In this document: positions 1 through 52,009 of the stretch, piece after piece | Layout: each line of letters starts with the position of its first letter | Position numbering within the stretch: position 1 is the stretch's first letter | From: Escherichia coli | GTDB taxonomy: Bacteria > Pseudomonadota > Gammaproteobacteria > Enterobacterales > Enterobacteriaceae | Length of the DNA stretch: 64,000 nucleotides | NCBI RefSeq assembly: GCF_965641715.1 | Contig: NZ_OZ282453.1 | Strand: one strand, 5' to 3' | Notes under the pieces: model-generated | What the model was told of the DNA's origin: nothing | What the model saw: only the letters and a program-made list of their open reading frames with translations | The model's database searches: none | Made by a program: the position numbers and the translations under genes

Positions 1-602
1 TAGGCATTGGTTTTGCCGGCGTGGCGCTGGCATTCGGTTTGACCGTTCTGACGATGGCCTTCGCTGTTGGTCATATTTCTGGTGGTCATTTTAACCCAGC
101 GGTCACTATTGGTTTATGGGCTGGCGGACGTTTTCCGGCAAAAGAAGTCGTTGGCTACGTAATTGCCCAGGTTGTCGGCGGTATTGTTGCAGCGGCGCTG
201 CTGTATTTAATTGCCAGTGGTAAAACGGGTTTTGACGCGGCAGCCAGCGGTTTTGCTTCTAACGGTTATGGCGAGCATTCACCAGGCGGTTATTCCATGC
301 TTTCCGCGCTGGTAGTTGAACTGGTATTGAGTGCAGGTTTCCTGTTGGTGATCCACGGCGCAACCGACAAATTCGCTCCGGCAGGTTTTGCGCCGATCGC
401 TATTGGTCTGGCCTTAACCCTGATTCACTTAATCAGTATTCCGGTGACTAACACTTCTGTTAACCCGGCGCGCAGCACCGCAGTTGCCATCTTCCAGGGC
501 GGCTGGGCATTAGAACAACTGTGGTTCTTCTGGGTGGTGCCAATTGTCGGTGGCATTATCGGTGGTCTGATTTACCGGACTCTGCTGGAAAAGCGTAATT
601 AA
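1..602 (+). CDS. aqpZ: aquaporin Z, 5'-truncated at the window edge (frame 3, stop TAA 600-602)
   Basis: Translation [35 protein letters not shown]... contains both MIP-family NPA motifs (NPAVT, NPARS) and matches E. coli AqpZ; the true N-terminus lies upstream of the window. Confidence 0.95.
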
Positions 603-1059
603 TTAGCATTGGCATTTTATCTGCCCTGGTTGTTTTATCTTCGACATTACAAACCGCACGGGTATTGGTGGCGTCAAAATCGCTGAAGCGTTCCCCGAAG
701 GCCGGGGCAGCCCACATGGATGTGGGCTGAGGGTGCGTCTTACAGGACGTTACCTCGCGCCCGACCCGGTAGCCGAAGGGGATAAGCTGAAGGTACCGCG
801 CAGCGGCGATTTTGTTCGCCAGAGCCCGGGGGTGCAGGGGGCGGCGGCGACTGGCCGCCCCCTGCGCGCTCCCTGCGCCAGTGGCTTTATATGGCATTGC
901 ACATGAAAGGAGCGCAACAATGCTAAACACTCATATAGAATTAAAAATCCCCCTCTGATGCATAACATTTCCTTTTAATTGCAACTTTACTCGTCCTTCC
1001 GCTTTCAGTAGTGTGTCATCGCGCATTTCGACTTCTTTCTTTGCAAGGGCTGGGTTTTC

Positions 1060-1959
1060 ATGTTTTCTGGGTTGTTAATCATTCTGGTTCCCCTGATTGT
1101 GGGTTACCTCATTCCGCTTCGCCAACAAGCTGCGTTAAAAGTTATTAATCAGCTATTAAGCTGGATGGTTTACCTTATTCTCTTTTTTATGGGTATCAGT
1201 CTGGCGTTTCTCGATAACCTCGCCAGTAACCTGTTGGCGATTCTGCATTATTCTGCCGTCAGTATTACCGTTATTTTACTGTGTAATATTGCCGCCCTTA
1301 TGTGGCTGGAGCGCGGTCTGCCGTGGCGCAACCACCATCAGCAAGAAAAACTCCCGTCGCGTATTGCGATGGCGCTTGAGTCGCTAAAACTGTGCGGCGT
1401 AGTAGTGATTGGTTTTGCCATTGGCCTGAGTGGACTGGCTTTCTTACAACACGCGACCGAAGCCAGTGAATACACCTTAATTCTGCTACTTTTCCTCGTC
1501 GGTATTCAGTTGCGCAATAATGGCATGACCTTAAAGCAGATTGTCCTTAATCGCCGGGGAATGATTGTCGCCGTGGTGGTGGTTGCCAGTTCATTAATTG
1601 GTGGTTTAATTAACGCCTTTATTCTTGATCTACCCATCAATACCGCGCTGGCAATGGCCTCTGGTTTCGGCTGGTATTCTCTTTCCGGTATTTTATTGAC
1701 CGAATCTTTTGGTCCGGTAATCGGGAGCGCGGCGTTTTTTAATGATCTGGCCCGTGAGCTGATTGCAATTATGTTGATCCCTGGGCTGATTCGCCGCAGC
1801 CGCTCTACCGCACTGGGCTTATGCGGTGCGACGTCGATGGATTTCACCCTGCCCGTTCTTCAACGTACTGGCGGGCTGGATATGGTCCCGGCGGCAATTG
1901 TTCACGGTTTTATTCTTAGCCTGTTAGTGCCGATCCTCATCGCCTTTTTCTCTGCGTAA
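1060..1959 (+). CDS. lysO: lysine exporter LysO (YbjE), 299 aa inner-membrane protein
   Basis: ORF track 1060..1959; hydrophobic multi-helix translation recognised as E. coli YbjE/LysO, same length. Confidence 0.9.
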   Translation: MFSGLLIILVPLIVGYLIPLRQQAALKVINQLLSWMVYLILFFMGISLAFLDNLASNLLAILHYSAVSITVILLCNIAALMWLERGLPWRNHHQQEKLPSRIAMALESLKLCGVVVIGFAIGLSGLAFLQHATEASEYTLILLLFLVGIQLRNNGMTLKQIVLNRRGMIVAVVVVASSLIGGLINAFILDLPINTALAMASGFGWYSLSGILLTESFGPVIGSAAFFNDLARELIAIMLIPGLIRRSRSTALGLCGATSMDFTLPVLQRTGGLDMVPAAIVHGFILSLLVPILIAFFSA

Positions 1960-1992
1960 TACCTCTCTGGCGGTAGATCCCTGCCGCCAAAA

Positions 1993-2006
1993 TTGCGCTA
2001 AATCAA
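1993..2006 (+). promoter_or_regulatory. putative FNR half-site pair TTGCG-N4-ATCAA upstream of hcp
   Basis: ttgcgctaaatcaa resembles the FNR consensus TTGAT-N4-ATCAA; hcp is a known FNR-activated gene; about 100 bp upstream of the hcp ATG. Confidence 0.35.
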
Positions 2007-2064
2007 TCTCCCTTAAAGTTGCATGAAAAATCCCTTTTATCCCCGCGTTAAGCGTCTTAACCTT

Positions 2065-2088
2065 AAACATGTATATTAAATATAACTT
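2065..2088 (+). promoter_or_regulatory. putative NsrR-like AT-rich site in the hcp leader (one good half-site AACATGTATAT)
   Basis: aaacatgtatattaaatataactt; left half resembles the NsrR half-site AAnATGcATnT, right half is weaker; hcp-hcr is NsrR-repressed in E. coli. Confidence 0.25.
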
Positions 2089-2102
2089 TAAAAGGTGTGA
2101 TC

Positions 2103-3755
2103 ATGTTTTGTGTGCAATGTGAACAAACTATCCGTACTCCGGCAGGAAACGGCTGCTCATACGCGCAGGGGATGTGTGGTAAAACGGCGGAAACCTCTGA
2201 CCTTCAGGATTTACTCATCGCGGCGCTGCAAGGGCTTTCTGCCTGGGCGGTAAAAGCGCGTGAATACGGCATCATCAACCACGATGTCGACAGCTTCGCG
2301 CCACGCGCCTTTTTCTCAACCCTGACCAACGTTAACTTCGATTCTCCGCGTATTGTCGGCTACGCTCGTGAAGCGATTGCCTTGCGCGAGGCGCTGAAAG
2401 CACAATGCCTGGCTGTAGATGCCAACGCCCGCGTCGATAACCCGATGGCTGACCTGCAACTGGTGAGCGACGATCTCGGCGAACTGCAACGTCAGGCAGC
2501 AGAATTTACCCCTAACAAAGATAAAGCGGCGATTGGCGAAAACATTCTCGGCCTGCGTCTGCTGTGCCTGTATGGCCTGAAAGGTGCGGCGGCCTATATG
2601 GAACACGCACACGTTCTCGGTCAATACGACAACGATATTTATGCCCAGTATCATAAAATCATGGCGTGGCTGGGGACCTGGCCTGCCGATATGAACGCGC
2701 TTCTTGAGTGTTCAATGGAAATCGGCCAGATGAACTTCAAAGTGATGAGCATTCTGGATGCAGGCGAAACCGGTAAATACGGTCACCCGACGCCAACCCA
2801 GGTCAACGTCAAAGCGACGGCGGGTAAATGCATCCTGATTTCCGGTCACGATCTCAAAGATCTCTACAACCTGCTGGAACAGACCGAAGGCACGGGCGTT
2901 AATGTCTACACCCACGGCGAAATGCTGCCTGCGCATGGCTACCCGGAGCTGCGTAAATTCAAGCATCTGGTCGGTAACTACGGCAGCGGCTGGCAGAATC
3001 AGCAAGTGGAGTTCGCTCGTTTCCCTGGCCCCATCGTGATGACCTCGAACTGCATCATCGACCCAACCGTAGGCGCTTATGACGATCGTATCTGGACCCG
3101 CAGCATCGTTGGCTGGCCTGGCGTGCGTCATCTGGATGGCGAAGATTTCTCTGCGGTCATTGCCCAGGCGCAACAAATGGCAGGCTTCCCATACAGCGAA
3201 ATTCCGCACCTGATCACCGTGGGCTTTGGCCGCCAGACGCTGCTTGGCGCAGCGGATACGCTAATTGATCTGGTGAGCCGTGAAAAACTGCGTCATATCT
3301 TCCTGCTTGGTGGCTGTGACGGCGCACGCGGCGAACGTCACTACTTCACCGATTTCGCCACCAGCGTGCCGGATGACTGCCTGATCCTGACCCTCGCCTG
3401 TGGTAAATATCGCTTTAACAAACTTGAGTTTGGCGATATCGAAGGTCTGCCGCGTCTGGTAGATGCAGGTCAATGTAACGATGCTTACTCAGCGATTATT
3501 CTGGCGGTAACGCTGGCAGAAAAACTGGGCTGCGGTGTCAACGATCTGCCGCTGTCGCTGGTGCTCTCCTGGTTTGAACAGAAAGCGATTGTCATTCTGC
3601 TGACGCTGCTTTCTCTGGGCGTGAAAAATATCGTCACCGGCCCGACTGCACCTGGTTTCCTGACACCAGATCTGCTGGCGGTGCTGAACGAGAAATTCGG
3701 CCTGCGTTCTATCACCACTGTTGAAGAAGACATGAAGCAACTGTTGAGCGCGTAA
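2103..3755 (+). CDS. hcp: hybrid-cluster protein (hydroxylamine reductase), 550 aa
   Basis: ORF track 2097..3755 trimmed to ATG 2103 (MFCVQCEQT...); N-terminal Cys cluster CxxC...C...C; matches E. coli Hcp. Confidence 0.95.
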
Positions 3756-3766
3756 GGAGTTTGTCG

Positions 3767-4735
3767 ATGACGATGCCAACGAATCAATGCCCGTGGCGGA
3801 TGCAGGTTCATCACATTAAGCAAGAAACGCCGGATGTGTGGACGATTTCCCTGATTTGCCACGATTACTACCCATATCGCGCCGGGCAATATGCACTGGT
3901 CAGCGTGCGAAACTCAGCGGAAACGCTGCGTGCTTACACTATTTCCTCCACGCCAGGAGTGAGTGAATATATCACCCTGACCGTGCGGCGGATTGATGAC
4001 GGTGTCGGCTCCCAGTGGCTGACGCGCGATGTAAAACGCGGTGATTATCTCTGGCTTTCGGACGCGATGGGGGAATTTACCTGCGACGATAAAGCAGAAG
4101 ATAAATTCCTGTTGCTGGCTGCAGGCTGCGGCGTCACGCCGATTATGTCGATGCGTCGCTGGCTGGCGAAGAATCGTCCACAGGCCGATGTACAGGTGAT
4201 CTACAACGTGCGTACGCCGCAGGATGTTATTTTCGCCGATGAGTGGCGTAACTATCCGGTAACGCTGGTGGCGGAAAATAACGTTACCGAAGGCTTTATC
4301 ACTGGTCGTCTCACTCGCGAACTCCTGACTCGCGTTCCTGACTTAGCTTCACGTACCGTGATGACCTGCGGCCCGGCTCCGTATATGGATTGGGTAGAGC
4401 AGGAAGTGAAAGCGCTCGGCGTGACGCGTTTCTTTAAAGAGAAATTCTTCACCCCAGTAGCGGAAGCGGCGACCAGCGGTCTGAAATTCACCAAACTGCA
4501 ACCGGCGCAAGAATTTTACGCTCCTGTTGGCACCACGCTGCTGGAGGCGCTGGAAAGCAATAAAGTTCCGGTTGTCGCCGCCTGCCGCGCGGGTGTTTGC
4601 GGCTGCTGTAAGACGAAAGTGGTTTCCGGTGAATATACGGTGAGCAGTACAATGACGCTGACCGACGCCGAAATCGCTGAAGGTTACGTACTGGCCTGCT
4701 CCTGCCATCCGCAGGGGGATTTGGTTCTCGCATAA
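3767..4735 (+). CDS. hcr: NADH oxidoreductase for Hcp (FAD/NAD binding plus C-terminal 2Fe-2S ferredoxin domain), 322 aa
   Basis: ORF track 3761..4735 (TTG) trimmed to ATG 3767 (MTMPTNQCPW...); C-terminal CRAGVCGCCKTKV cysteine motif; 11 bp after the hcp stop, operon arrangement. Confidence 0.95.
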   Translation: MTMPTNQCPWRMQVHHIKQETPDVWTISLICHDYYPYRAGQYALVSVRNSAETLRAYTISSTPGVSEYITLTVRRIDDGVGSQWLTRDVKRGDYLWLSDAMGEFTCDDKAEDKFLLLAAGCGVTPIMSMRRWLAKNRPQADVQVIYNVRTPQDVIFADEWRNYPVTLVAENNVTEGFITGRLTRELLTRVPDLASRTVMTCGPAPYMDWVEQEVKALGVTRFFKEKFFTPVAEAATSGLKFTKLQPAQEFYAPVGTTLLEALESNKVPVVAACRAGVCGCCKTKVVSGEYTVSSTMTLTDAEIAEGYVLACSCHPQGDLVLA

Positions 4736-4744
4736 TCGCCTTAT

Positions 4745-4776
4745 GCCCGATGATATTCCTTTCATCGGGCTATTTA
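4745..4776 (+). terminator. rho-independent terminator of hcp-hcr
   Basis: 9-bp stem gcccgatga / tcatcgggc with 8-nt loop followed by tattta, immediately after the hcr stop. Confidence 0.6.
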
Positions 4777-4867
4777 ACCGTTAGTGCCTCCTTTCTCTCC
4801 CATCCCTTCCCCCTCCGTCAGATGAACTAAACTTGTTACCGTTATCACATTCAGGAGATGGAGAACC

Positions 4868-6586
4868 ATGAAACAAACGGTTGCAGCTTATATCGCCAAA
4901 ACACTCGAATCGGCAGGAGTGAAACGCATCTGGGGAGTCACGGGCGACTCTCTGAACGGTCTTAGCGACAGTCTTAATCGCATGGGCACCATCGAGTGGA
5001 TGTCCACCCGCCATGAAGAAGTGGCGGCGTTTGCCGCTGGCGCTGAAGCACAACTTTCAGGAGAACTGGCGGTCTGTGCCGGATCGTGCGGCCCCGGCAA
5101 CCTGCACTTGATCAACGGCCTGTTCGATTGCCACCGCAATCACGTTCCGGTACTGGCGATTGCCGCTCATATTCCCTCCAGCGAAATTGGCAGCGGCTAT
5201 TTCCAGGAAACCCACCCACAAGAGCTATTCCGCGAATGTAGCCACTATTGCGAGCTGGTTTCCAGCCCGGAGCAGATCCCACAAGTACTGGCGATTGCCA
5301 TGCGCAAAGCGGTACTTAACCGTGGCGTTTCGGTTGTCGTGTTACCAGGCGACGTGGCGTTAAAACCTGCGCCAGAAGGGGCAACTACCCACTGGTATCA
5401 TGCGCTACAGCCGGTCGTGACGCCGGAAGAAGAAGAGTTACGCAAACTGGCGCAACTGCTGCGTTATTCCAGCAATATCGCCCTGATGTGTGGCAGCGGC
5501 TGCGCGGGGGCGCATAAAGAGTTAGTTGAGTTTGCCGGGAAAATTAAAGCACCTATTGTTCATGCCCTGCGCGGTAAAGAACATGTCGAATACGATAATC
5601 CGTATGATGTTGGAATGACCGGGTTAATCGGCTTCTCGTCAGGTTTCCATACCATGATGAACGCCGACACGTTAGTGCTACTCGGTACTCAGTTCCCCTA
5701 CCGTGCGTTCTACCCGACCGATGCCAAAATTATTCAGATTGATATCAATCCAGCCAGCATCGGCGCTCACAGCAAGGTGGATATGGCACTGGTCGGCGAT
5801 ATCAAATCAACCCTGCGTGCATTGCTGCCACTGGTGGAAGAAAAAGCCGATCGCAAATTTCTGGATAAAGCGCTGGAAGATTACCGCGATGCCCGCAAAG
5901 GGCTGGACGATTTAGCTAAACCGAGCGAGAAAGCCATTCACCCGCAATATCTGGCGCAGCAAATTAGTCATTTTGCCGCCGATGACGCCATTTTCACCTG
6001 TGACGTTGGTACGCCAACGGTGTGGGCAGCGCGTTATCTGAAAATGAACGGCAAGCGTCGCCTGTTAGGTTCGTTTAACCACGGTTCGATGGCTAACGCC
6101 ATGCCGCAGGCGCTGGGTGCGCAGGCAACCGAGCCGGAACGTCAGGTGGTCGCCATGTGCGGCGATGGCGGTTTTAGCATGTTGATGGGCGATTTCCTCT
6201 CGGTAGTGCAGATGAAACTGCCGGTGAAAATTATCGTCTTTAATAACAACGTGCTGGGCTTTGTGGCGATGGAGATGAAAGCCGGAGGCTACCTGACAGA
6301 CGGCACCGAGCTTCACGACACCAACTTTGCCCGCATTGCCGAAGCATGCGGCATTACGGGTATTCGCGTGGAAAAAGCCTCTGAAGTCGATGAAGCCCTG
6401 CAACGCGCCTTTTCCATCGACGGTCCGGTGCTGGTGGATGTGGTGGTCGCCAAAGAAGAATTAGCCATTCCACCGCAGATCAAACTCGAACAGGCCAAAG
6501 GTTTTAGCCTGTATATGCTGCGCGCAATCATCAGCGGACGCGGTGATGAAGTGATCGAACTGGCGAAAACAAAGTGGCTAAGGTAA
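4868..6586 (+). CDS. poxB: pyruvate oxidase (ubiquinone-dependent, ThDP/FAD), 572 aa
   Basis: ORF track; translation [32 protein letters not shown]... matches E. coli PoxB at full length. Confidence 0.95.
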
Positions 6587-6622
6587 AAAGGGTGGCATTT
6601 CCCGTCATAATAAGGACATGCC

Positions 6623-7624
6623 ATGATTGATTTACGCAGTGATACCGTAACCCGACCGAGCCGCGCCATGCTCGAAGCGATGATGGCCGCCCCGGTTGGG
6701 GACGACGTTTACGGAGACGACCCTACCGTTAATGCTCTGCAGGACTATGCAGCAGAGCTTTCCGGTAAAGAAGCCGCCATTTTTCTGCCTACCGGCACTC
6801 AGGCCAACCTGGTCGCTCTGCTCAGTCACTGCGAACGTGGCGAAGAGTATATTGTCGGTCAGGCCGCGCATAACTATCTGTTTGAAGCCGGTGGCGCAGC
6901 GGTGCTGGGCAGTATTCAGCCGCAACCCATCGACGCGGCTGCCGACGGCACGCTACCGCTGGATAAAGTGGCGATGAAAATCAAACCCGACGATATCCAT
7001 TTCGCCCGCACCAAATTACTCAGTCTGGAAAACACCCACAACGGCAAAGTGTTGCCGCGTGAATACCTTAAAGATGCATGGGAATTTACCCGCGAGCGCA
7101 ATCTGGCGCTGCATGTTGACGGTGCGCGCATCTTTAACGCCGTGGTGGCTTACGGCTGCGAACTGAAAGAGATCACGCAATATTGTGATTCGTTCACCAT
7201 TTGCCTGTCGAAAGGTCTTGGGACGCCAGTCGGTTCATTACTCGTCGGTAATCGTGATTACATTAAACGTGCCATTCGCTGGCGGAAAATGACAGGTGGC
7301 GGGATGCGCCAGTCCGGCATTCTGGCTGCTGCCGGGATGTATGCGCTGAAAAATAACGTCGCACGCTTGCAGGAAGATCACGACAACGCCGCCTGGATGG
7401 CGGAGCAACTGCGCGAAGCGGGCGCGGATGTAATGCGTCAGGACACTAATATGCTGTTTGTCCGCGTCGGCGAAGAAAATGCTGCCGCGTTAGGCGAATA
7501 CATGAAAGCGAGAAACGTACTGATTAACGCCTCGCCGATTGTCCGCCTGGTGACCCATCTTGACGTCTCGCGCGAACAACTGGCAGAAGTCGCCGCCCAC
7601 TGGCGCGCATTCCTGGCGCGTTAA
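6623..7624 (+). CDS. ltaE: low-specificity L-threonine aldolase, 333 aa
   Basis: ORF track; [13 protein letters not shown]... PLP aldolase fold, matches E. coli LtaE. Confidence 0.95.
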
Positions 7625-7634
7625 GGAGGGAGAC

Positions 7635-9065
7635 GTGCCGCAACGCATTTTAGTTCTTGGTGCCAGTGGCTACATTGGTCAACATCTGGTGCAGGCACTC
7701 AGCCAGCAAGGGCATCAGATCCTGGCGGCGGCACGTCATGTCGACAGGCTTGCAAAGCTGCAACTGGCAAACGTCAGTTGCCATAAAGTCGATCTCAGCT
7801 GGCCGGATAACCTTCCGGCCCTGTTACAGGATATCGATACCGTCTATTTTCTGGTGCACAGCATGGGCGAAAGCGGCGATTTTATCGCTCAGGAGCGCCA
7901 GGTGGCTCTCAACGTCCGCGATGCGCTACGTGAAGTACCAGTTAAGCAATTAATCTTTCTCAGTTCGTTGCAGGCCCCGCCACATGAGCAGTCGGATCAT
8001 CTGCGTGCTCGTCAGGCTACGGCGGACATTCTTCGTGAAGCGAATGTACCAGTGACCGAACTTCGGGCCGGAATTATCGTTGGCGCAGGTTCCGCAGCGT
8101 TCGAAGTGATGCGCGATATGGTTTACAACCTGCCAGTGTTAACGCCGCCACGCTGGGTACGCTCACGCACCACGCCTATCGCGCTGGAAAACTTGCTGCA
8201 CTATCTGGTGGCGCTGTTAGACCATCCAGCCAACGAACACCGCATCTTCGAAGCCGCCGGACCAGAGGTGCTCAGTTATCAGCAACAGTTTGAACATTTT
8301 ATGGCGGTGAGCGGTAAGCGCCGCTGGTTGATCCCCATCCCCCTCCCCACCCGCTGGATTTCGGTGTGGTTTCTCAATGTGATTACTTCCGTACCGCCCA
8401 CCACCGCCAGGGCGTTGATTCAGGGGCTGAAACACGATCTGCTGGCGGATGACACCGCGCTACGTGCGCTCATCCCACAACGGCTGATCGCTTTCGATGA
8501 CGCGGTACGTAGCACGTTGAAAGAGGAAGAAAAACTGGTCAACTCCAGCGACTGGGGCTACGACGCTCAGGCCTTTGCCCGCTGGCGACCTGAGTACGGT
8601 TATTTCGCCAAACAGGCGGGGTTTACCGTTAAAACGTCCGCCAGCCTTGCGGCTTTATGGCAGGTAGTGAACCAAATCGGCGGTAAAGAGCGTTATTTCT
8701 TTGGCAATATTTTGTGGCAGACACGGGCGTTGATGGACCGTGCGATCGGTCATAAATTAGCGAAAGGCCGTCCGGAGCGCGAATATTTACAGACCGGCGA
8801 TGCGGTGGATAGCTGGAAAGTGATTGTCGTTGAACCGGAAAAACAACTTACGTTGTTATTTGGCATGAAAGCGCCGGGACTGGGACGACTGTGTTTTACC
8901 CTGGAAGATAAAGGCGACTATCGTACTATCGATGTCCGCGCTTTCTGGCATCCGCACGGGATGCCGGGGCTGTTTTACTGGTTATTGATGATCCCCGCGC
9001 ATCTGTTTATTTTTCGCGGAATGGCAAAACGAATCGCCAGACTGGCAGAACAAAGCACAGATTAA
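7635..9065 (+). CDS. ybjT: NAD(P)-binding Rossmann protein YbjT, 476 aa
   Basis: ORF track 7560..9065 overlaps ltaE; trimmed to GTG 7635 just after the ltaE stop, with GGAGGG SD at 7625-7630; N-terminal GASGYIG dinucleotide-binding motif. Confidence 0.85.
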
Positions 9066-41927: not shown

Positions 41928-43130
41928 TTAAGAGAACCAGCTGCCGAACCACTGATGGAATTTCATCATCACGAAATCCCACATCCGACCAAAGAATCCG
42001 CCCTCTTCCACATTTTCCATCACGATCAGCGGACGCTGCTCAATGGATTTACCGTTAAGCTGGAAATCAATGGTCCCGACAACCTGACCTTTTTTCAGCG
42101 GTGCGGTAAGCTGCGGTTCCGTTAATGTATAACTCGCTTTCAGGTTTTTCAGCTGCCCACGCGGTATGGTCACTGAGCCCGCTTCACCTGCCCCGAGATT
42201 CACTTCGCTCTTATCACCAAACCAGACGCGCTGAGTCACAAAGGTGGCATCAGGTTTAATTGGCGTCACGGTTTCAAAGAAGCGGAAACCCCAGGTCAAT
42301 AATTTCTCAGACTCATTAAAACGGATACGGTCGGTTTTCGCCCCCAGCACTACGGAGATTAAACGCATATCGCCCTGGGTAGCCGAAGCAACCAGATTAT
42401 ATCCCGCGCCTGCCGTGGTTCCTGTCTTCATGCCATCAACATTCAGATTGCTGCTCCACAGCAGACGGTTACGGTTAGGCTGACGAATTTTGTTGAAGGT
42501 GAACTCTTTCTCTTTATGAATGGCGTACTCTTCCGGCACATCGTGGATCAATGCTTTACCCAGCAATGCCATATCGCGCGCGGTACTGAACTGCCCCGGC
42601 GCATCCAGACCGTGCACCGTCTGGAAGGTAGTGTTGGTCAGCCCCAGTTTTTTGGCATAACCATTCATCAAACCAATAAATGACTCCTGGCTCCCGGCAA
42701 CGTAATCGGCCAGCGCAATACAGGCGTCATTACCGGACTGGATAATCACACCTTTGTTCAAGTCTGCCACCGAAACCTGATCGCCCGGTTTGAGGAACAT
42801 TACCGATGAACCACGCAGTGCCGGATTTCCCGTCGCCCAGGCATCTTTACCGACCGTCACCATATCGGTGAGTTTAATCTTATCGGCCTTAAGCGCCTGC
42901 CCAACCACATAGCTGGTCATGATTTTAGTCAGGCTCGCGGGATCCAGTTTCTCATCCGCATTGCCTTCTGCCAGCACTTTACCGCTGGCGTAATCCATTA
43001 AAATCCATGCACGCGCATCCACGCTCGGCGCTTCAACGGTTTGTTCGGCCGCGAATGCCGTTGGGGCAAAAAGGAATAAAAATGCAGAACCCGCTGCAAG
43101 ACCACGAAGGAGAGAGGAGTATTGCGTCAT
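41928..43130 (-). CDS. dacC: D-alanyl-D-alanine carboxypeptidase DacC (PBP6), 400 aa
   Basis: ORF track 41928..43151 trimmed to ATG 43130 ([14 protein letters not shown]...); SxxK motif SLTK; matches E. coli DacC. Confidence 0.95.
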
Positions 43131-45821: not shown

Positions 45822-47147
45822 ATGAGCAAAGTAACTCCCCAGCCGAAAATCGGCTTTGTTTCCCTTGGCTGTCCGAAAAACCTTGTCGATTCAGAGCGTA
45901 TTCTCACCGAACTCCGCACTGAAGGTTATGACGTGGTACCGAGCTATGACGATGCGGACATGGTGATCGTCAACACCTGCGGCTTTATTGACAGCGCGGT
46001 ACAAGAATCACTGGAAGCCATTGGTGAAGCGTTGAATGAAAACGGCAAGGTAATTGTGACCGGTTGTCTGGGGGCAAAAGAAGATCAGATCCGCGAAGTC
46101 CACCCGAAAGTGCTGGAAATCACCGGGCCTCATAGCTATGAGCAGGTTCTGGAGCACGTTCATCACTACGTGCCAAAACCGAAACACAACCCATTCCTGA
46201 GCCTGGTGCCAGAACAAGGTGTCAAACTGACGCCGCGTCATTATGCCTATCTGAAAATTTCTGAAGGCTGTAATCACCGCTGCACCTTCTGCATTATTCC
46301 GTCTATGCGCGGCGACCTGGTGAGCCGTCCGATTGGCGAAGTATTAAGTGAAGCGAAACGTCTGGTAGATGCGGGCGTTAAAGAGATTCTGGTGATCTCG
46401 CAGGATACTTCCGCCTATGGCGTTGATGTTAAACATCGTACTGGCTTCCACAACGGCGAGCCGGTAAAAACCAGCATGGTCAGCCTGTGCGAACAGTTAT
46501 CGAAACTGGGGATCTGGACACGTCTGCACTACGTTTACCCTTATCCGCATGTGGACGACGTCATCCCACTGATGGCAGAAGGCAAAATCCTGCCGTATCT
46601 GGACATTCCGTTGCAGCACGCCAGCCCGCGCATTCTCAAACTGATGAAGCGTCCGGGTTCTGTAGATCGCCAACTGGCGCGCATCAAACAGTGGCGCGAA
46701 ATCTGCCCGGAACTGACCCTACGCTCAACCTTTATTGTCGGCTTCCCTGGCGAGACGGAAGAAGATTTCCAGATGCTACTCGACTTCCTGAAAGAAGCGC
46801 GTCTGGATCGCGTTGGCTGCTTTAAATACAGCCCGGTTGAAGGTGCAGACGCCAATGCCCTGCCTGACCAGGTTCCGGAAGAAGTGAAAGAAGAACGCTG
46901 GAACCGTTTCATGCAGTTGCAGCAGCAGATTTCCGCCGAGCGCCTGCAAGAGAAAGTGGGCCGTGAAATTCTGGTGATTATCGACGAAGTGGACGAAGAA
47001 GGCGCGATTGGTCGCAGCATGGCAGATGCACCGGAAATCGACGGCGCGGTTTATCTCAATGGTGAAACCAACGTTAAGCCGGGTGATATCCTGCGTGTGA
47101 AAGTCGAGCACGCCGATGAGTACGATTTGTGGGGTAGCCGGGTTTAA
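45822..47147 (+). CDS. rimO: ribosomal protein S12 methylthiotransferase RimO (radical SAM), 441 aa
   Basis: ORF track; radical-SAM CxxxCxxC (CNHRCTFC) and N-terminal MTTase cysteines; matches E. coli RimO. Confidence 0.95.
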
Positions 47148-47331
47148 TTAATCTAAAGGCAGATCTAACAAGGATATTGTTCTTCGATCTGCCTCTACTA
47201 CCCTTCCCGATGTCCTACCCTTACGCACAAAATCCCCTGACGCATAAATCGAGAAAAATGAATCGTACTCGAGGCAACTCTCACTTTTTCACACCAAATT
47301 AAAGTTTTGATCGCAATTACTTGAAATAAGC

Positions 47332-47357
47332 GTAATGGTTACTATAGTAAACATTAC
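47332..47357. promoter_or_regulatory. near-perfect 26-bp palindrome (GTAATGGTTACTA|TAGTAAACATTAC) upstream of the toxin gene; probable autoregulatory operator overlapping a -10-like TATAGT
   Basis: 12 of 13 arm positions are self-complementary; ends 15 bp before the toxin ATG. Confidence 0.5.
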
Positions 47358-47372
47358 CACAAGGATGGATGT

Positions 47373-47759
47373 ATGGGTGTGTATAAGGCAAGGCGATTCA
47401 GCCAAAGCACGAAAAAACTTGGTATTCACGATAAAGTTCTCATGGCTGCCGCTGAAGAAGTGATGCAAGGCATATGGGAAGCTGATTTAGGTAGCGGTGT
47501 CATCAAAAAACGGTTACCCCTCCAACAAGGAAAGAGTGGTGGAGCCAGAACAATTATCTTTTTTAAATCAGCAAATCATGTGTTTTTTTATGATGGTTGG
47601 TCCAAGAGTGGTCTAAGCAGTAAAGGAAGCAAAGAAATCGAAGATGATGAACTGGCAGCCTACAAAAAAATGGCAAATGCATTTCTGGCCTTTAGCAATA
47701 AGCAAATAGAGGATTTGATCGAAACTGGCTTCTTGATTGAGGTGAAAAATGAGCGATAA
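47373..47759 (+). CDS. type II toxin, HigB-2-like (RelE/ParE superfamily), 128 aa; not part of the K-12 backbone
   Basis: Motif GKSGGARTIIFF resembles the GGxRxIYYF core of HigB-2-type toxins; toxin-first order with an 11-nt overlap onto an XRE-HTH gene; AAGGA SD. Confidence 0.75.
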   Translation: MGVYKARRFSQSTKKLGIHDKVLMAAAEEVMQGIWEADLGSGVIKKRLPLQQGKSGGARTIIFFKSANHVFFYDGWSKSGLSSKGSKEIEDDELAAYKKMANAFLAFSNKQIEDLIETGFLIEVKNER

Positions 47760-48078
47760 ATTACAAATGATGCTGGAAGATGCAAAGGAACTGAATGCAC
47801 TGGGCCTGATGTCTGATAGTGAGGTTGATGCCATTGCCGTCATGGTCAAAGCCCGTGAAGTCAGCGCCCGTATAGCCAAAGTCAAATCAATGACGGGTGA
47901 AGAGATCAAAGCCATCCGCACCCGATACGGCATGTCACAATCCGTGCTGGCACATACAATGGGAATGTCAAAAGAAAGTGTCTCGAAATGGGAACGTAAT
48001 GAAATAAAACCGAGCGGCCCGGCACTACGTATTTTGAATACATTGGCAATAAAAGGGCCGGAAGTTTTTGCAAAGTAA
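47749..48078 (+). CDS. antitoxin, HigA-2/NadS-like XRE-family HTH protein, 109 aa
   Basis: C-terminal HTH (IRTRYGMSQSVLAHTMGMSKESVSKWERNEIKPSGPALRILN) typical of COG2944-type antitoxins; translationally coupled to the upstream toxin; GAGGTG SD. Confidence 0.75.
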   Translation: MSDKLQMMLEDAKELNALGLMSDSEVDAIAVMVKAREVSARIAKVKSMTGEEIKAIRTRYGMSQSVLAHTMGMSKESVSKWERNEIKPSGPALRILNTLAIKGPEVFAK

Positions 48079-48107
48079 AATGTTTGCAAATGATTTACCA
48101 CATTCAT

Positions 48108-48133
48108 TAGTACCCCTTGATTCAGGGGTACTA
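48108..48133. terminator. hairpin between the convergent antitoxin and dgcI 3' ends (stem tagtacccc / ggggtacta)
   Basis: 9-bp perfect stem, 8-nt loop, moderately T-rich flank; candidate bidirectional terminator. Confidence 0.45.
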
Positions 48134-48147
48134 ACACTATTCTAATT

Positions 48148-49476
48148 CTACTGCCAGCTAATCTGTGCCCTGCCGTTTTTCTTACTCTTATACAGCCGCT
48201 CATCCGCCAGCATTTTCAAGCGTTCGACGGTAGTACATTCATTTGAATGCGCTACACCGATACTGGTACTTAAATTAATGCTTCCCACCTGGAAATGAAC
48301 GATTTCTTTTAGAATCGATAGTAACTCTTCCAGCGTGCCGCCAGTATAAATCACCGCAAATTCGTCACCGCCGAAGCGGTAGACTTTACCTTTATCTACC
48401 GGGATCTGTGATTTAAGGATTTTCACCACTTTCATCAACACTTCATCGCCCAGCAAATGACCGAAGGTGTCGTTAATATTTTTGAATTTATCGACGTCAA
48501 ACAGGCACAAATAACCGCCTTTTTCCGGCAGCGCTTTTAAATCTTCGTCAAAGGATTTTCTGCCCATTGCTTTGGTCAGGTCGTCCAGGAACGCCGAGTT
48601 ATACATACTGTAGAGTTTTTTGACATCGGCAGCCGAAAAGAAAAGCCCGCCATCCAGTACGCGTTCAAAATGGTTATTAATAATGGCTTCTTTCTCCACA
48701 ATACCACGATTAATCACTCTGCGTACCAGATAGAGGCAACTGGTACCCGATATCACTGCCACCAATGCGGCAAAGAAAATAATCAATGTACAAACCCGCA
48801 AATAAACATCTTTTTTATACGCAAATACGTACAATCCGGTCGGCAAATAGGCGAAGTGCTCCATCGCTTCCGAAACGGTGAAGATGGCGTTTTTAGCATT
48901 ATATTCATCACCGGTCACCGGTTTACCGTTCTTAAACAGAGAGAACATCAGGTTCTCGCTGTCCATCGCCAGCGATTTTGACAGTAAAGAAAAACGCTCC
49001 AGACCAAGCAAAAATATCAGACTACGATTGTGAGTTACCGGATAGAGGTAATAGACGAAGGTTTTACCGTCAAAAGAGATAAACCCTGTATTTTTGACAT
49101 GTCGATACTTCACAACCTGCATAATATCTGCACAATAATTTTTCTCGAACTCCTTTACCTGAATACATTCGTCACTGGAAATCAGATAAGGACCGACATC
49201 GTACAAATAAGAGGGTGAAACCGAGTCGGCGTAAGCTGTGCGCAAGCCAACCAACAGCTGTTCCTCCGTGGGATTTAGCGTGTTGATAAGATCAATTGCC
49301 ACGCTACGACGATATTCAGCAATATTTGCCACCGCAAAAGCAGTATCAATAACGGACTGTTTCAGGCTATACACCCGTTCCTTTACCATTTGAGTGTAGA
49401 TCCCGCAGGCAACTGCTGAAATCATGATAAAAATCAGCAGACTGACTGTAAGTACGAACTTATTGATTCTGGACAT
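48148..49476 (-). CDS. dgcI: diguanylate cyclase DgcI (YliF), GGDEF domain, 442 aa
   Basis: ORF track; GGDEF motif RFGGDEF in the C-terminal domain; matches E. coli YliF. Confidence 0.9.
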
Positions 49477-49483
49477 ACGTAAA

Positions 49484-51832
49484 CTACTCTTTTACTAATT
49501 TTCCACTTTTATCCCAGGCGGAGAATGGCATGGGTTTCTGGTACAGATACCCCTGAGCCTGAACACATCCTAATTTGATTAATTCGCGCGCAACGTCTTC
49601 GCTCTCTACGCCTTCCGCAATCACCGGGATCCGGTTATAGCGTGCCAGGTCGAAAATAATGCGCACAATTTTTCCCGCAGTACCGAAAATATCGCCGGTA
49701 AATTGCGAGTCCACCTTTATGCTGTCTGGATTAATTTCATAAAAACGTTTCAGGTTTGACAAACCGGTGCCAAAGTCATCAATCGATATCCGTACCCCTT
49801 GTTTACGCAGTTGTTCAATATTGAGATAAAAATGTTCATTAATTCGCTCGATCACGGTTTCAGTGATCTCAACACAGAGGCTGTTCGCCTTCAGGCCATT
49901 TTCTTTCATGATGGTGGTAAAACGCTCATGAAAGTGCGGTTCGTTTAACTGCCAGGGCGAAACATTAATATGCAGTAAGAAATCATCCTTCAGCGACGCA
50001 CGCTGACTAAAATGTCTGAATTCACCCATTGCCGTTTTAATAATCTGATAACCCAGCTCATTGATAAACCCGATATCTTCAGCAATGGTAATGAACTTCA
50101 GCGGTGAAATGATCCCCCGCTCCGCAGACACCCAACGGCACAACGCCTCCGCGCCCAGAATGGCGCGGGTGTTAATATCAACGATCGGTTGATAGACAAG
50201 GAATAGTTCGCCAATTTCCATTGCATGGCGAATATTACGCGCAATCCAGATATTCTCTTCTATTTCGTTGAGTTTCGCGTCATCACAGAAAATAAACTCG
50301 GAGAACATATGGTCACGGATACTGGAAATCGCCAGTTTCAGTTTTTCTGCGTAACTCCAGGCGTTTTCCCCCTGCAAAGGTTCACAAATGGCAGACTTAT
50401 GGATGCGCAGATTGCGGTAGCCAAAGCTGCTGTCAAAATCGTTTACCATCGCTATTTTACGGGTAAATGTCTGTACATTTTCCCGACACAGAAGTAAATA
50501 GAGATCGGCATTGAATGTCACGATATCGCAGCATTGTGCATATTTCTCAGCAATTCGCTGACACAATTTCCTGACGATTTTATTGCGTTCATCAACACCA
50601 AACACCGCTTCCACGGCTTCCAGACCACACAGTTTGATGATCCCCACAGCCAGATACTGATTATTGTTGGACTCAATAATCGCCATATTTTTAATAAAAC
50701 CACTTTCCTGATCGTAAGAGATCAGTGAGAGCAATTTATTTGACCGTTCAATTTCGGCATCTTTCATTTCCGCGATCGAATTTTTGATGCTGATAATCTC
50801 TTTCGCATCGCCTTCGCGAATTTTCAGAGCCTCGATCTGATCCGTTGAGTCAGGCAAAAACGCCAGCGTATTAACCAACTCGGTCATTTCAGAAAATTGC
50901 CGACGGAACACACGAGTGGTCATTAAATAAACCACCAGCAATACGATAATAATGAACGCAAACGGCAGATAAAAAAGTTTATCTGATGCGTTCAATAAAT
51001 TACCGCCCGGATAATAAAAATAGATTTCGAATAATGCGTTGTTTGGCACCGCTGATGTTTTTTCGATATATTCAGTATCGACAGAATCAATAATATTATA
51101 ATTACCTTCGCTATTATAAATAATCAGTTTTTCACGAGCGAGTTGATTCTTGGCAATGATCTCATGGCCTTGTTTCAAAAATAGAACTTCATCATTAGCG
51201 CTGATTTGATCAAGATACTCGTTCAGATATCGCCAGTTTAAATCGACATGAATTTTATCCACCGCTAACAAATCGTGATCTTTGCCGTTGATGCGTAGCG
51301 TAAAAGAGATACATTTTTTACCCGGACGATCAAAGCAATTGTATGCCGGATTCCAGCTGTTGTTAGAGTCATCTGAAGCCACCGACCACGGTCGTTTCGA
51401 TGGGTTAAAATCGGCAAAAATAACCCGCCCTGACTCGTCGACAAGCGGTCCATTTACTTGTTCCTGATGATAAACAACGATTTTATCGTTCGCCCTCCGC
51501 GAAAAGAGATAATATTTATTATCATCAAGTACCAGTCCCACCGAGTCTAAAAATGGCATCATTTCCATTTTCAGGATCACAGCGCGTTGAATCTCCTCTG
51601 TATTTTTTAATAAATACAGTGAGTCCTTTAATGTCAGGGCCGAACGTTCAATATCTTTAAAGAAATAGCCAACGTTTTTCTGAATAAGTTCAAAGCGGCT
51701 ATCGGCACGTTTTACCGCGCGTTCCGATACCAGTTGATAGTTAATGATGAAAAAAAGGCCAATAAATGACAGTGCTGCCAATAAAAATAAAATTATCAGC
51801 CTTATCTTTATCTTTTCGTATAAACTCAGCAT
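49484..51832 (-). CDS. pdeI: c-di-GMP phosphodiesterase PdeI (YliE), EAL domain, 782 aa
   Basis: ORF track 49484..51910 trimmed to ATG 51832 ([18 protein letters not shown]...); EAL-domain signature in the C-terminal third. Confidence 0.9.
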
Positions 51833-52009
51833 GTTAATACATTTAACAAAATAACTGTCTGAACGCTGTGCCGCTGCAAAAACAGTCCCTTGCTGCGGCT
51901 TTTTAACCAAATTACCCGATTCTACAAAATCAGCAGAAAGTTACAACACTTGCTTAGGGCAATAATTTCCTGTGAGGTGATTACTCTTTCAAGCAATATT
52001 CAAACGTAA

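Follow-up and report, generated by a model that had tools for sequence, protein, structure and literature searches.

The DNA analysed here (hereafter the window) is a 64-kb stretch of the Escherichia coli contig NZ_OZ282453.1 (assembly GCF_965641715.1), and our subject is a two-gene module between its genes rimO and dgcI, a candidate type II toxin-antitoxin (TA) operon. RefSeq names the product of the upstream gene 'type II toxin-antitoxin system RelE/ParE family toxin' and that of the downstream gene 'helix-turn-helix domain-containing protein'; we refer to the two as the toxin and the antitoxin. A first-pass annotation of this DNA had described a 128-amino-acid (aa) toxin followed, with an 11-nt gene overlap, by a 109-aa helix-turn-helix (HTH) protein in toxin-first order, and this arrangement holds. 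The genes and the signals that accompany them are as follows.

47321-47326, + strand: -35-like hexamer TTGAAA, from a promoter scan; sequence conservation with the relative in Enterobacteriaceae bacterium UBA5654 begins here
47332-47357, no strand assigned: 26-bp palindrome GTAATGGTTACTA|TAGTAAACATTAC, whose arms match at 12 of 13 positions; candidate operator for an antitoxin dimer
47343-47348, + strand: -10-like hexamer TATAGT, from the promoter scan, at the centre of the palindrome
47361-47365, + strand: Shine-Dalgarno sequence AAGGA of the toxin gene, 7 nt 5' of its ATG, read from the sequence
47373-47759, + strand: toxin gene, 128 aa, Pfam PF06296 (HigB-2 family, RelE/ParE superfamily)
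47739-47744, + strand: Shine-Dalgarno sequence GAGGTG of the antitoxin gene, inside the 3' end of the toxin gene and 4 nt 5' of the antitoxin ATG, read from the sequence
47749-48078, + strand: antitoxin gene, 109 aa, with an N-terminal two-helix segment and a C-terminal XRE HTH domain of the HigA-2 type

The 11-nt overlap, together with the placing of the antitoxin Shine-Dalgarno sequence within the toxin gene, suggests that translation of the two genes may be coupled. The genes likewise overlap or abut in Kluyvera and Xenorhabdus, and an antitoxin gene lies directly 3' of the toxin gene in every relative examined.

Family assignment of the toxin and antitoxin

In a Pfam scan the toxin matched a single family, PF06296 ('RelE'; 113.9 bits against a cut-off of 27, E = 6.8e-33), its residues 1-124 aligning over model positions 1-120 of 120. 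This family contains HigB-2 of Vibrio cholerae (Q9KMA6), and Gp49 (PF05973) is a separate family (PMC11980606). The hidden Markov model search that the first-pass annotation had proposed as a check therefore finds the toxin homologous to a family of the RelE/ParE superfamily, and the description of the protein as a HigB-2-type RelE/ParE toxin stands; the accompanying Gp49 label does not, since PF05973 gave no match at E <= 0.1. No NCBIfam model matched the toxin.

Nothing among the PDB sequences was matched by the toxin as a single sequence, even at E <= 10; a profile built from 20 toxin sequences reached the solved HigB-2 chains (E = 3e-4) over the GKxGGxR strand-loop-strand. The motif GKSGGARTIIFF occupies toxin residues 53-64. 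An AlphaFold (AF2) model of the toxin was obtained with a predicted local distance difference test score (pLDDT) of 84.7 and a predicted template-modelling score (pTM) of 0.80. When it was compared with the PDB by Foldseek, the best eight matches were all HigB2 chains (E = 2e-4 to 2e-3, template-modelling (TM) scores 0.45-0.59), and the next were Mycobacterium tuberculosis HigB1, YafQ, RelE, ParE and YoeB, which places the predicted structure within the RelE/ParE (BECR) fold. The active site of HigB-2 consists of K49, R51, R64, Y82 and K84 (PMC5416850, PMC10098735). Toxin residues K45, R47, R59 and K78 align with K49, R51, R64 and K84, respectively, and are invariant in 67 homologs from genomes; the equivalent of Tyr82 is W76, a position that is aromatic in all 67 (Trp in 30, Phe in 33 and Tyr in 4).

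The HTH domain of the antitoxin was recognised by PF01381 in the Pfam scan (E = 2e-9). Its similarity to V. cholerae HigA-2 could be seen in the PDB with the single sequence (E = 5.7e-4), and a 37-sequence antitoxin profile returned HigA-2 as its best PDB match (5jaa_A, E = 8.1e-13). HigA2 was also the top PDB match of the predicted fold; the predicted HTH domain (about residues 48-107, pLDDT about 95) superposes on HigA-2 (5j9i) with a root-mean-square deviation of 1.1 Å over 61-62 residues (TMt 0.83). The HTH domain is preceded by residues 1-47, for which helices are predicted at 2-17 and 23-43 (pLDDT 80-96); this N-terminus is unmatched in sequence to that of HigA-2, and the profile alignment begins at residue 46. 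As for other families of HTH antitoxins, NadS (NCBIfam NF041265) was rejected at 36.7 bits against a cut-off of 60, MqsA at 47.1 against 61.8 bits for TIGR03830 and 20.6 against 30 for PF15731, the protein having no cysteine, and YiaG (NF007481, E = 6e-6) at 26.7 bits against a cut-off of 110. The first-pass annotation had offered the antitoxin as an XRE-HTH protein of the HigA-2/NadS type; the HigA-2 half of that label is the one to keep.

Promoter, candidate operator and proposed mechanism

TTGAAA and TATAGT are separated by 16 nt and score 10 of 12 as a sigma-70 promoter. The palindrome that covers the -10 element ends 15 nt 5' of the toxin ATG and is built of an inner block, TTACTA|TAGTAA, and an outer one, GTA...TAC. 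No other zero-spacer palindrome in the window has 13-nt arms that mismatch at one position or none, and first-order Markov simulations of the window give a chance expectation of 0.08 such sites per 64 kb. Four more zero-spacer palindromes, whose 11-nt arms likewise mismatch at no more than one position, lie at window positions 708-729, 13624-13645, 42604-42625 and 51598-51619.

We gathered 76 related loci, one genome per species, and read the DNA 5' of each toxin gene. At the position of the palindrome, 23 Enterobacterales relatives have the consensus gtnGTAatnnTTACTA|TAgTAatnattACnac. In these promoters the inner TTACTA|TAGTAA and the outer GTA and (T)AC blocks are symmetric and conserved at 80% or more, in the spacing GTA-N7-TTACTA|TAGTAA-N5-(T)AC, and palindrome positions +/-7-10 are variable. 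The left outer block falls in the spacer between -35 and -10, where promoter function by itself sets no sequence. In more distant relatives (Legionella, Thiotrichales, Coxiella and others) the -10 is likewise covered by a palindrome, but one of another sequence, TATAxCACTnAGTGxTATA, and the footprinted V. cholerae operator, TGTACGC-N5-GCGTACA, begins just after the -35 and runs across the -10 (PMC11006873). Since relatives of differing sequence have a palindrome over the -10, this layout is a trait of the family.

On this comparative evidence, the 26-bp palindrome is very probably the antitoxin binding site and the autoregulatory operator of the module. The proposal made at first pass, that a palindrome matching at 12 of 13 positions, 15 bp upstream of the toxin and overlapping the TATAGT -10, is a strong operator candidate, is upheld; its description as 'unusually clean' is half right, as the element is clean but not exceptional, with 12 of 16 symmetric positions here against 14 of 16 in Pantoea formicae. 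That it is no operator, and is kept only for the sake of its -10 hexamer or as a DNA or RNA hairpin, strikes us as highly improbable. TATAGT does lie at its exact centre, partial symmetry comes easily in AT-rich promoter DNA, and the region folds as RNA, if weakly (-7.6 kcal/mol); yet the symmetric conservation takes in +/-11-13 (GTA/TAC) as well as +/-3-6, beyond the hexamer and into the spacer, such a palindrome is rarely expected by chance (the 0.08 per 64 kb given above), relatives of unrelated sequence have a palindrome at the same position, and experiments on two relatives have demonstrated that the antitoxin binds there (PMC11006873, PMC10098735).

We consider it very likely that the locus is a chromosomal type II TA operon of the HigBA-2 family with a self-repressing promoter. 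The toxin-first, HigB-2/HigA-2-like type II module of the first-pass annotation is thus supported by PF06296, by the profile matches to HigB-2 and HigA-2 and by the predicted folds. The layout, the promoter-like site, the symmetric element, the family membership, the active-site equivalents and the signs of purifying selection described below are read from sequence, and the functional steps are modelled on V. cholerae HigBA2 and Coxiella ToxP/AntitoxP. A single sigma-70 promoter (TTGAAA-16-TATAGT) would probably drive a two-gene mRNA. By analogy with HigB-2 and ToxP, the toxin is probably a RelE-fold, ribosome-dependent mRNA endonuclease that would halt translation by cutting mRNA in the A site, and the N-terminal helical segment of the antitoxin would probably neutralise it. 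The antitoxin would probably dimerise through its C-terminal HTH domain and, alone or bound to the toxin, repress the operon from the palindrome over the -10; were it lost faster than the toxin, the toxin would be freed and the promoter derepressed, by analogy with the related systems.

Several observations weigh against this reading. The catalytic Tyr82 of HigB-2 is replaced by Trp in the toxin, and the likeness to solved HigB-2 is remote, at about 13% identity and TM scores of 0.5-0.59, with the single sequence unmatched. The N-terminal segment of the antitoxin consists of two confidently predicted helices, and the disordered helix-plus-strand segment of HigA-2 is about 10 residues shorter; the geometry of neutralisation may therefore differ from that of HigA-2. 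The residues with which HigA-2 reads bases, R68, E71, N72 and R77 (PMC11006873), align with antitoxin E76, S79, K80 and E85; all four of these base contacts differ, so that the half-sites read cannot be inferred from HigA-2, and the changes fit an operator sequence different from that of HigA-2. The palindrome also admits a reading as two tandem 11-bp units, GTAAnnnTTAC, 15 bp apart, and is therefore compatible with one or with two bound dimers, and its central 6 bp would be kept merely as a -10 element.

Distribution, selection and origin

The module is present in 1138 of 5426 complete E. coli genomes (21%) and is contiguous with both rimO and dgcI in 1129 of them, a survey that bears out the first-pass view of it as accessory in E. 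coli and not universal backbone. All real E. coli copies are chromosomal and lie at the rimO-dgcI site. Three 'plasmid' records in PLSDB with 99% matches (NZ_CP134663.1, NZ_CP141089.1 (4.9 Mb) and CP088669.1 (730 kb)) are mislabelled chromosomes or chromosome fragments. Carriers include O157:H7 strains (99.9% identical), many human and poultry isolates with genomes of 5.0-5.3 Mb (98.4-98.8%) and, judged by its accession, the enteroaggregative E. coli (EAEC) strain 042; the exact toxin sequence occurs on at least 1000 contigs. The module also turns up on a 1198-bp contig assigned to a Collinsella sp. metagenome-assembled genome (JAIJJM010000872.1), where the toxin matches at 99% and, with 100% identity at the protein level, so do the antitoxin and the 3' end of dgcI; E. 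coli DNA contaminating the bin is almost certainly the source.

We compared the window with three carriers of a divergent allele group, about 1.4% apart from it. Between the alleles the toxin gene shows 7 nucleotide changes and one amino-acid change (S86T), the antitoxin gene 3-4 nucleotide changes and no amino-acid change, and the 52-bp stretch of promoter, candidate operator and leader, which starts at the -35 and reaches the toxin ATG, no change; divergence in the adjoining parts of rimO and dgcI is similar to that of the module. Because the changes are mostly synonymous and the divergence resembles that of the flanks, the comparison indicates that the module is under purifying selection in E. 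coli and points to long residence in the species.

These data bear on whether the module is decaying or domesticated, with a toxin that is no longer toxic and an HTH protein that persists as an ordinary regulator or protects, as an anti-addiction antitoxin, against relatives borne on plasmids. Decay of chromosomal TA modules is known in E. coli (ccdO157, cited in PMC7167474, is one case), toxin variants truncated to 73-122 aa are found in the protein database, the equivalent of Tyr82 is Trp, and relatives are carried on plasmids in Providencia, Moellerella, Pantoea and others. Against this, the toxin is full length with all its basic active-site equivalents invariant, the divergent carriers differ in it by 6 synonymous changes and one conservative change, neither the gene overlap nor either ribosome-binding site is disrupted, Trp or Phe at the Tyr82 position is the family norm and no lesion, and the identical toxin sequence recurs on the 1000 or more contigs mentioned above. 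We therefore regard decay or domestication as quite unlikely. The only partial E. coli copy inspected, in strain BS-01 (NZ_CP172816.1), was discarded as evidence of decay; its rimO-dgcI region is full of homopolymer runs and frameshifts, and its pdeI is flagged as a pseudogene, which we attribute to the low quality of the assembly.

Comparison of the filled site with the empty one delimits the variable segment and, with it, two hairpins that flank the operon.

47153-48148, no strand assigned: variable segment of 996 bp, from the comparison of filled and empty sites, standing in place of a 42-bp spacer in K-12 and strain 536
47157-47194, + strand: hairpin just 3' of rimO, an inverted repeat with a minimum free energy (MFE) of -16.2 kcal/mol (z = -2.96) and no U-tract
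48107-48134, no strand assigned: hairpin with a perfect 11-bp stem between the convergent antitoxin and dgcI genes, an inverted repeat with no clear U-tract

The coding sequences of rimO and dgcI converge and lie 46 bp apart in strain 536 and in a K-12-type genome, adjacent and convergent as the first-pass annotation had stated for K-12, and the spacer holds a GC-rich hairpin. The extra segment of about 1 kb that the annotation had described is likewise present, its extent now refined to the 996 bp listed above against 42 bp in K-12; the records compared span 2001 and 1047 bp, a difference of 954 bp. The segment starts 5 nt past the rimO stop codon and ends inside that of dgcI (48148-48150), which is TAG in module carriers and TAA in K-12 and 536, so that the boundary falls within the stop codon. 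At the junctions we found no direct repeats, target-site duplications, insertion sequence (IS) elements, integrase or recombinase genes, or att-like features. A scan of 47000-48300 against Rfam (E <= 1) gave no match, leaving the 173-bp upstream spacer without a known RNA. The hairpin next to rimO is specific to E. coli, lying upstream of the -35 and having no homology in UBA5654; it is possibly a rimO terminator that takes the place of the K-12 spacer hairpin. The hairpin beyond the antitoxin gene is a probable two-way terminator, with an MFE of -16.8 kcal/mol on the + strand and -23.5 on the - strand (z = -5.0).

Beyond the segment, the rimO side continues with bssR and yliI, and the dgcI side with pdeI and gsiDCBA. 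(The longest open reading frame (ORF) of pdeI, 49484-51910 on the - strand, has a TTG start and 808 aa, compared with 782 aa for the RefSeq protein in O157:H7, a matter of start-codon choice only.) This neighbourhood also speaks to the idea that the operon is primarily an abortive-infection system against phages. Toxins of the RelE/ParE superfamily have been discussed as defence toxins (PMC11980606), and one phage genome has a toxin relative of 36% identity. The toxin, however, matches none of the families in PADLOC-DB 2.0, the antitoxin matches generic HTH models only, and rimO, dgcI, pdeI and the gsi genes form no defence-island context; an anti-phage role as the primary function is, in our judgement, unlikely. 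The phage relative, annotated as hypothetical, lies at PV340552.1:4340-4657 in the genome of Escherichia phage PhiR12_3 of E. coli ECOR13.

Relatives with 68-74% identity occur in the same neighbourhood in other genera, in the order bssR-TA-gsiD in Kluyvera sichuanensis and TA-gsiD in K. georgiana; in UBA5654 the order is yliI-bssR-rimO-(one extra gene)-TA-gsiDCBA. The extra gene of UBA5654 is a 316-aa ORF of unknown family (locus positions 3738-4688) with no counterpart in E. coli. DNA homology between the genera runs solely from the -35 to the antitoxin stop codon. The one-genome-per-species scan recovered no representative of another Escherichia species. Further relatives are those on plasmids, in the genera already named, and a module in Xenorhabdus sp. 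KJ12.1 (locus positions 1-8387) that is flanked by genes for a Tn3-family transposase, a resolvase and a DDE transposase; some members of the family are thus transposon-borne, which the E. coli copy is not.

The first-pass annotation had described the module as 'inserted' between rimO and dgcI, which goes beyond the evidence: there are no target duplications or mobility genes, and relatives are found in the same neighbourhood in other genera. A recent horizontal insertion into an ancestrally empty rimO-dgcI spacer nonetheless keeps appreciable, if minority, weight in our assessment: 79% of E. coli genomes lack the module, no other Escherichia species was recovered among the one-per-species representatives, relatives sit on plasmids and, in Xenorhabdus, beside Tn3-type transposase genes, and the homology across genera, from promoter to antitoxin stop codon, is like that of a portable cassette. 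Set against these points are the junctions, which lack direct repeats, IS elements, integrase genes and att-like features, the divergence among carrier alleles (about 1.4%), which matches that of the flanking genes, the spread of carriers over distant lineages (O157:H7 and, by accession, EAEC 042), and the ortholog-like pattern of the 68-74% relatives, which stand beside gsiD and next to bssR or rimO in Kluyvera and UBA5654. Because of this synteny across genera and the divergence matching that of the flanks, we favour the reading of the module as an old resident of E. coli rather than a recent arrival, and its presence/absence polymorphism may reflect loss as much as gain.

A bolder version would make the module an ancient, vertically inherited resident of the bssR/rimO-gsi region in Escherichia, Kluyvera and a related genus, repeatedly lost and not a mobile selfish cassette, with a four-half-site operator (GTAA/TTAC x 4) for two dimers; we hold this to be doubtful. 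If true, such retention of a type II TA module in place across genera would be rare and would imply a benefit at the level of the host, possibly tied to the adjacent cyclic di-GMP and biofilm genes.

Significance and comparison with known systems

In the open-access literature, searched by locus tags, RefSeq accessions and rimO/dgcI with toxin-antitoxin, we found no experimental paper on this E. coli locus, and its accessions are not listed in the supplements of PMC11980606. The family, its structures and its operator logic have already been published, and the E. coli locus looks like an uncharacterised, ordinary and intact-looking member. The significance is accordingly small and lies in a precise family assignment (PF06296/HigBA-2, not Gp49 or NadS), in an operator consensus for the enterobacterial branch and in a clean presence/absence marker for E. 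coli, found in O157:H7 and missing from K-12 and 536. Because promoter, candidate operator and both genes are intact, the locus is a ready candidate for the study of an E. coli-native HigBA-2, and the apparent synteny across genera adds a small data point to the question of whether chromosomal TA modules are selfish passengers or are kept for the host.

Among known systems, MqsR/MqsA and HigB/HigA (ygjN-ygjM) of E. coli K-12 resemble the module in having the toxin first and an HTH antitoxin, which in those systems represses through promoter palindromes. The C-terminal domain of MqsA is similar to the antitoxin described here, which differs in lacking the zinc-binding CxxC N-terminal domain and, indeed, any cysteine; the toxin, for its part, matches neither the MqsR nor the HigB Pfam family. 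The relE-yiaG modules (PMC11980606) likewise place a PF06296 toxin 5' of an HTH protein that begins with two helices, and for its part the E. coli antitoxin has a weak match to YiaG (NF007481, E = 6e-6), but at 26.7 bits it falls far below the cut-off of 110, and relE-yiaG toxins have extended disordered N-termini, whereas the E. coli toxin starts at the conserved fold (Pfam residues 1-124).

V. cholerae HigB-2/HigA-2 (higBA2; PDB 5JA8, 5JAA and 8A0X) shares with the E. coli module a PF06296 toxin, the toxin-first order, a RelE-like fold with equivalents of K49, R51, R64 and K84, an antitoxin made of an N-terminal segment, neutralising in HigA-2, and a C-terminal XRE HTH domain for dimerisation and DNA binding (PMC5416850, PMC11006873), and a single inverted repeat, here the candidate operator, that begins after the -35 and extends over the -10 (PMC11006873). 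The toxins differ in sequence (about 13% identity in a structural alignment), in an additional 18 C-terminal residues in E. coli and in the change of Tyr82 to Trp, and the antitoxins in the two long predicted helices of the E. coli N-terminal part and in the four base-contacting residues; the operator is TGTACGC-N5-GCGTACA there and GTAATGGTTACTA|TAGTAAACATTAC here, and the E. coli module does not lie in an integron.

The closest experimentally validated relative that we found is ToxP/AntitoxP (CBUA0028/CBUA0027) of the Coxiella burnetii plasmid QpH1. Unlike the E. coli module it is plasmid-borne and serves plasmid maintenance, its operator contains ..TTCACTTAGTGATATAG.., and it has Tyr at the aromatic active-site position. 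ToxP is 36% identical to the toxin (E = 5e-24) and AntitoxP 33% identical to the antitoxin (E = 2e-12), both over their full length, and the two systems have the same operon layout, with a palindrome over a TATAGT -10. ToxP is toxic and blocks translation, and AntitoxP binds both the toxin and the promoter (PMC10098735).

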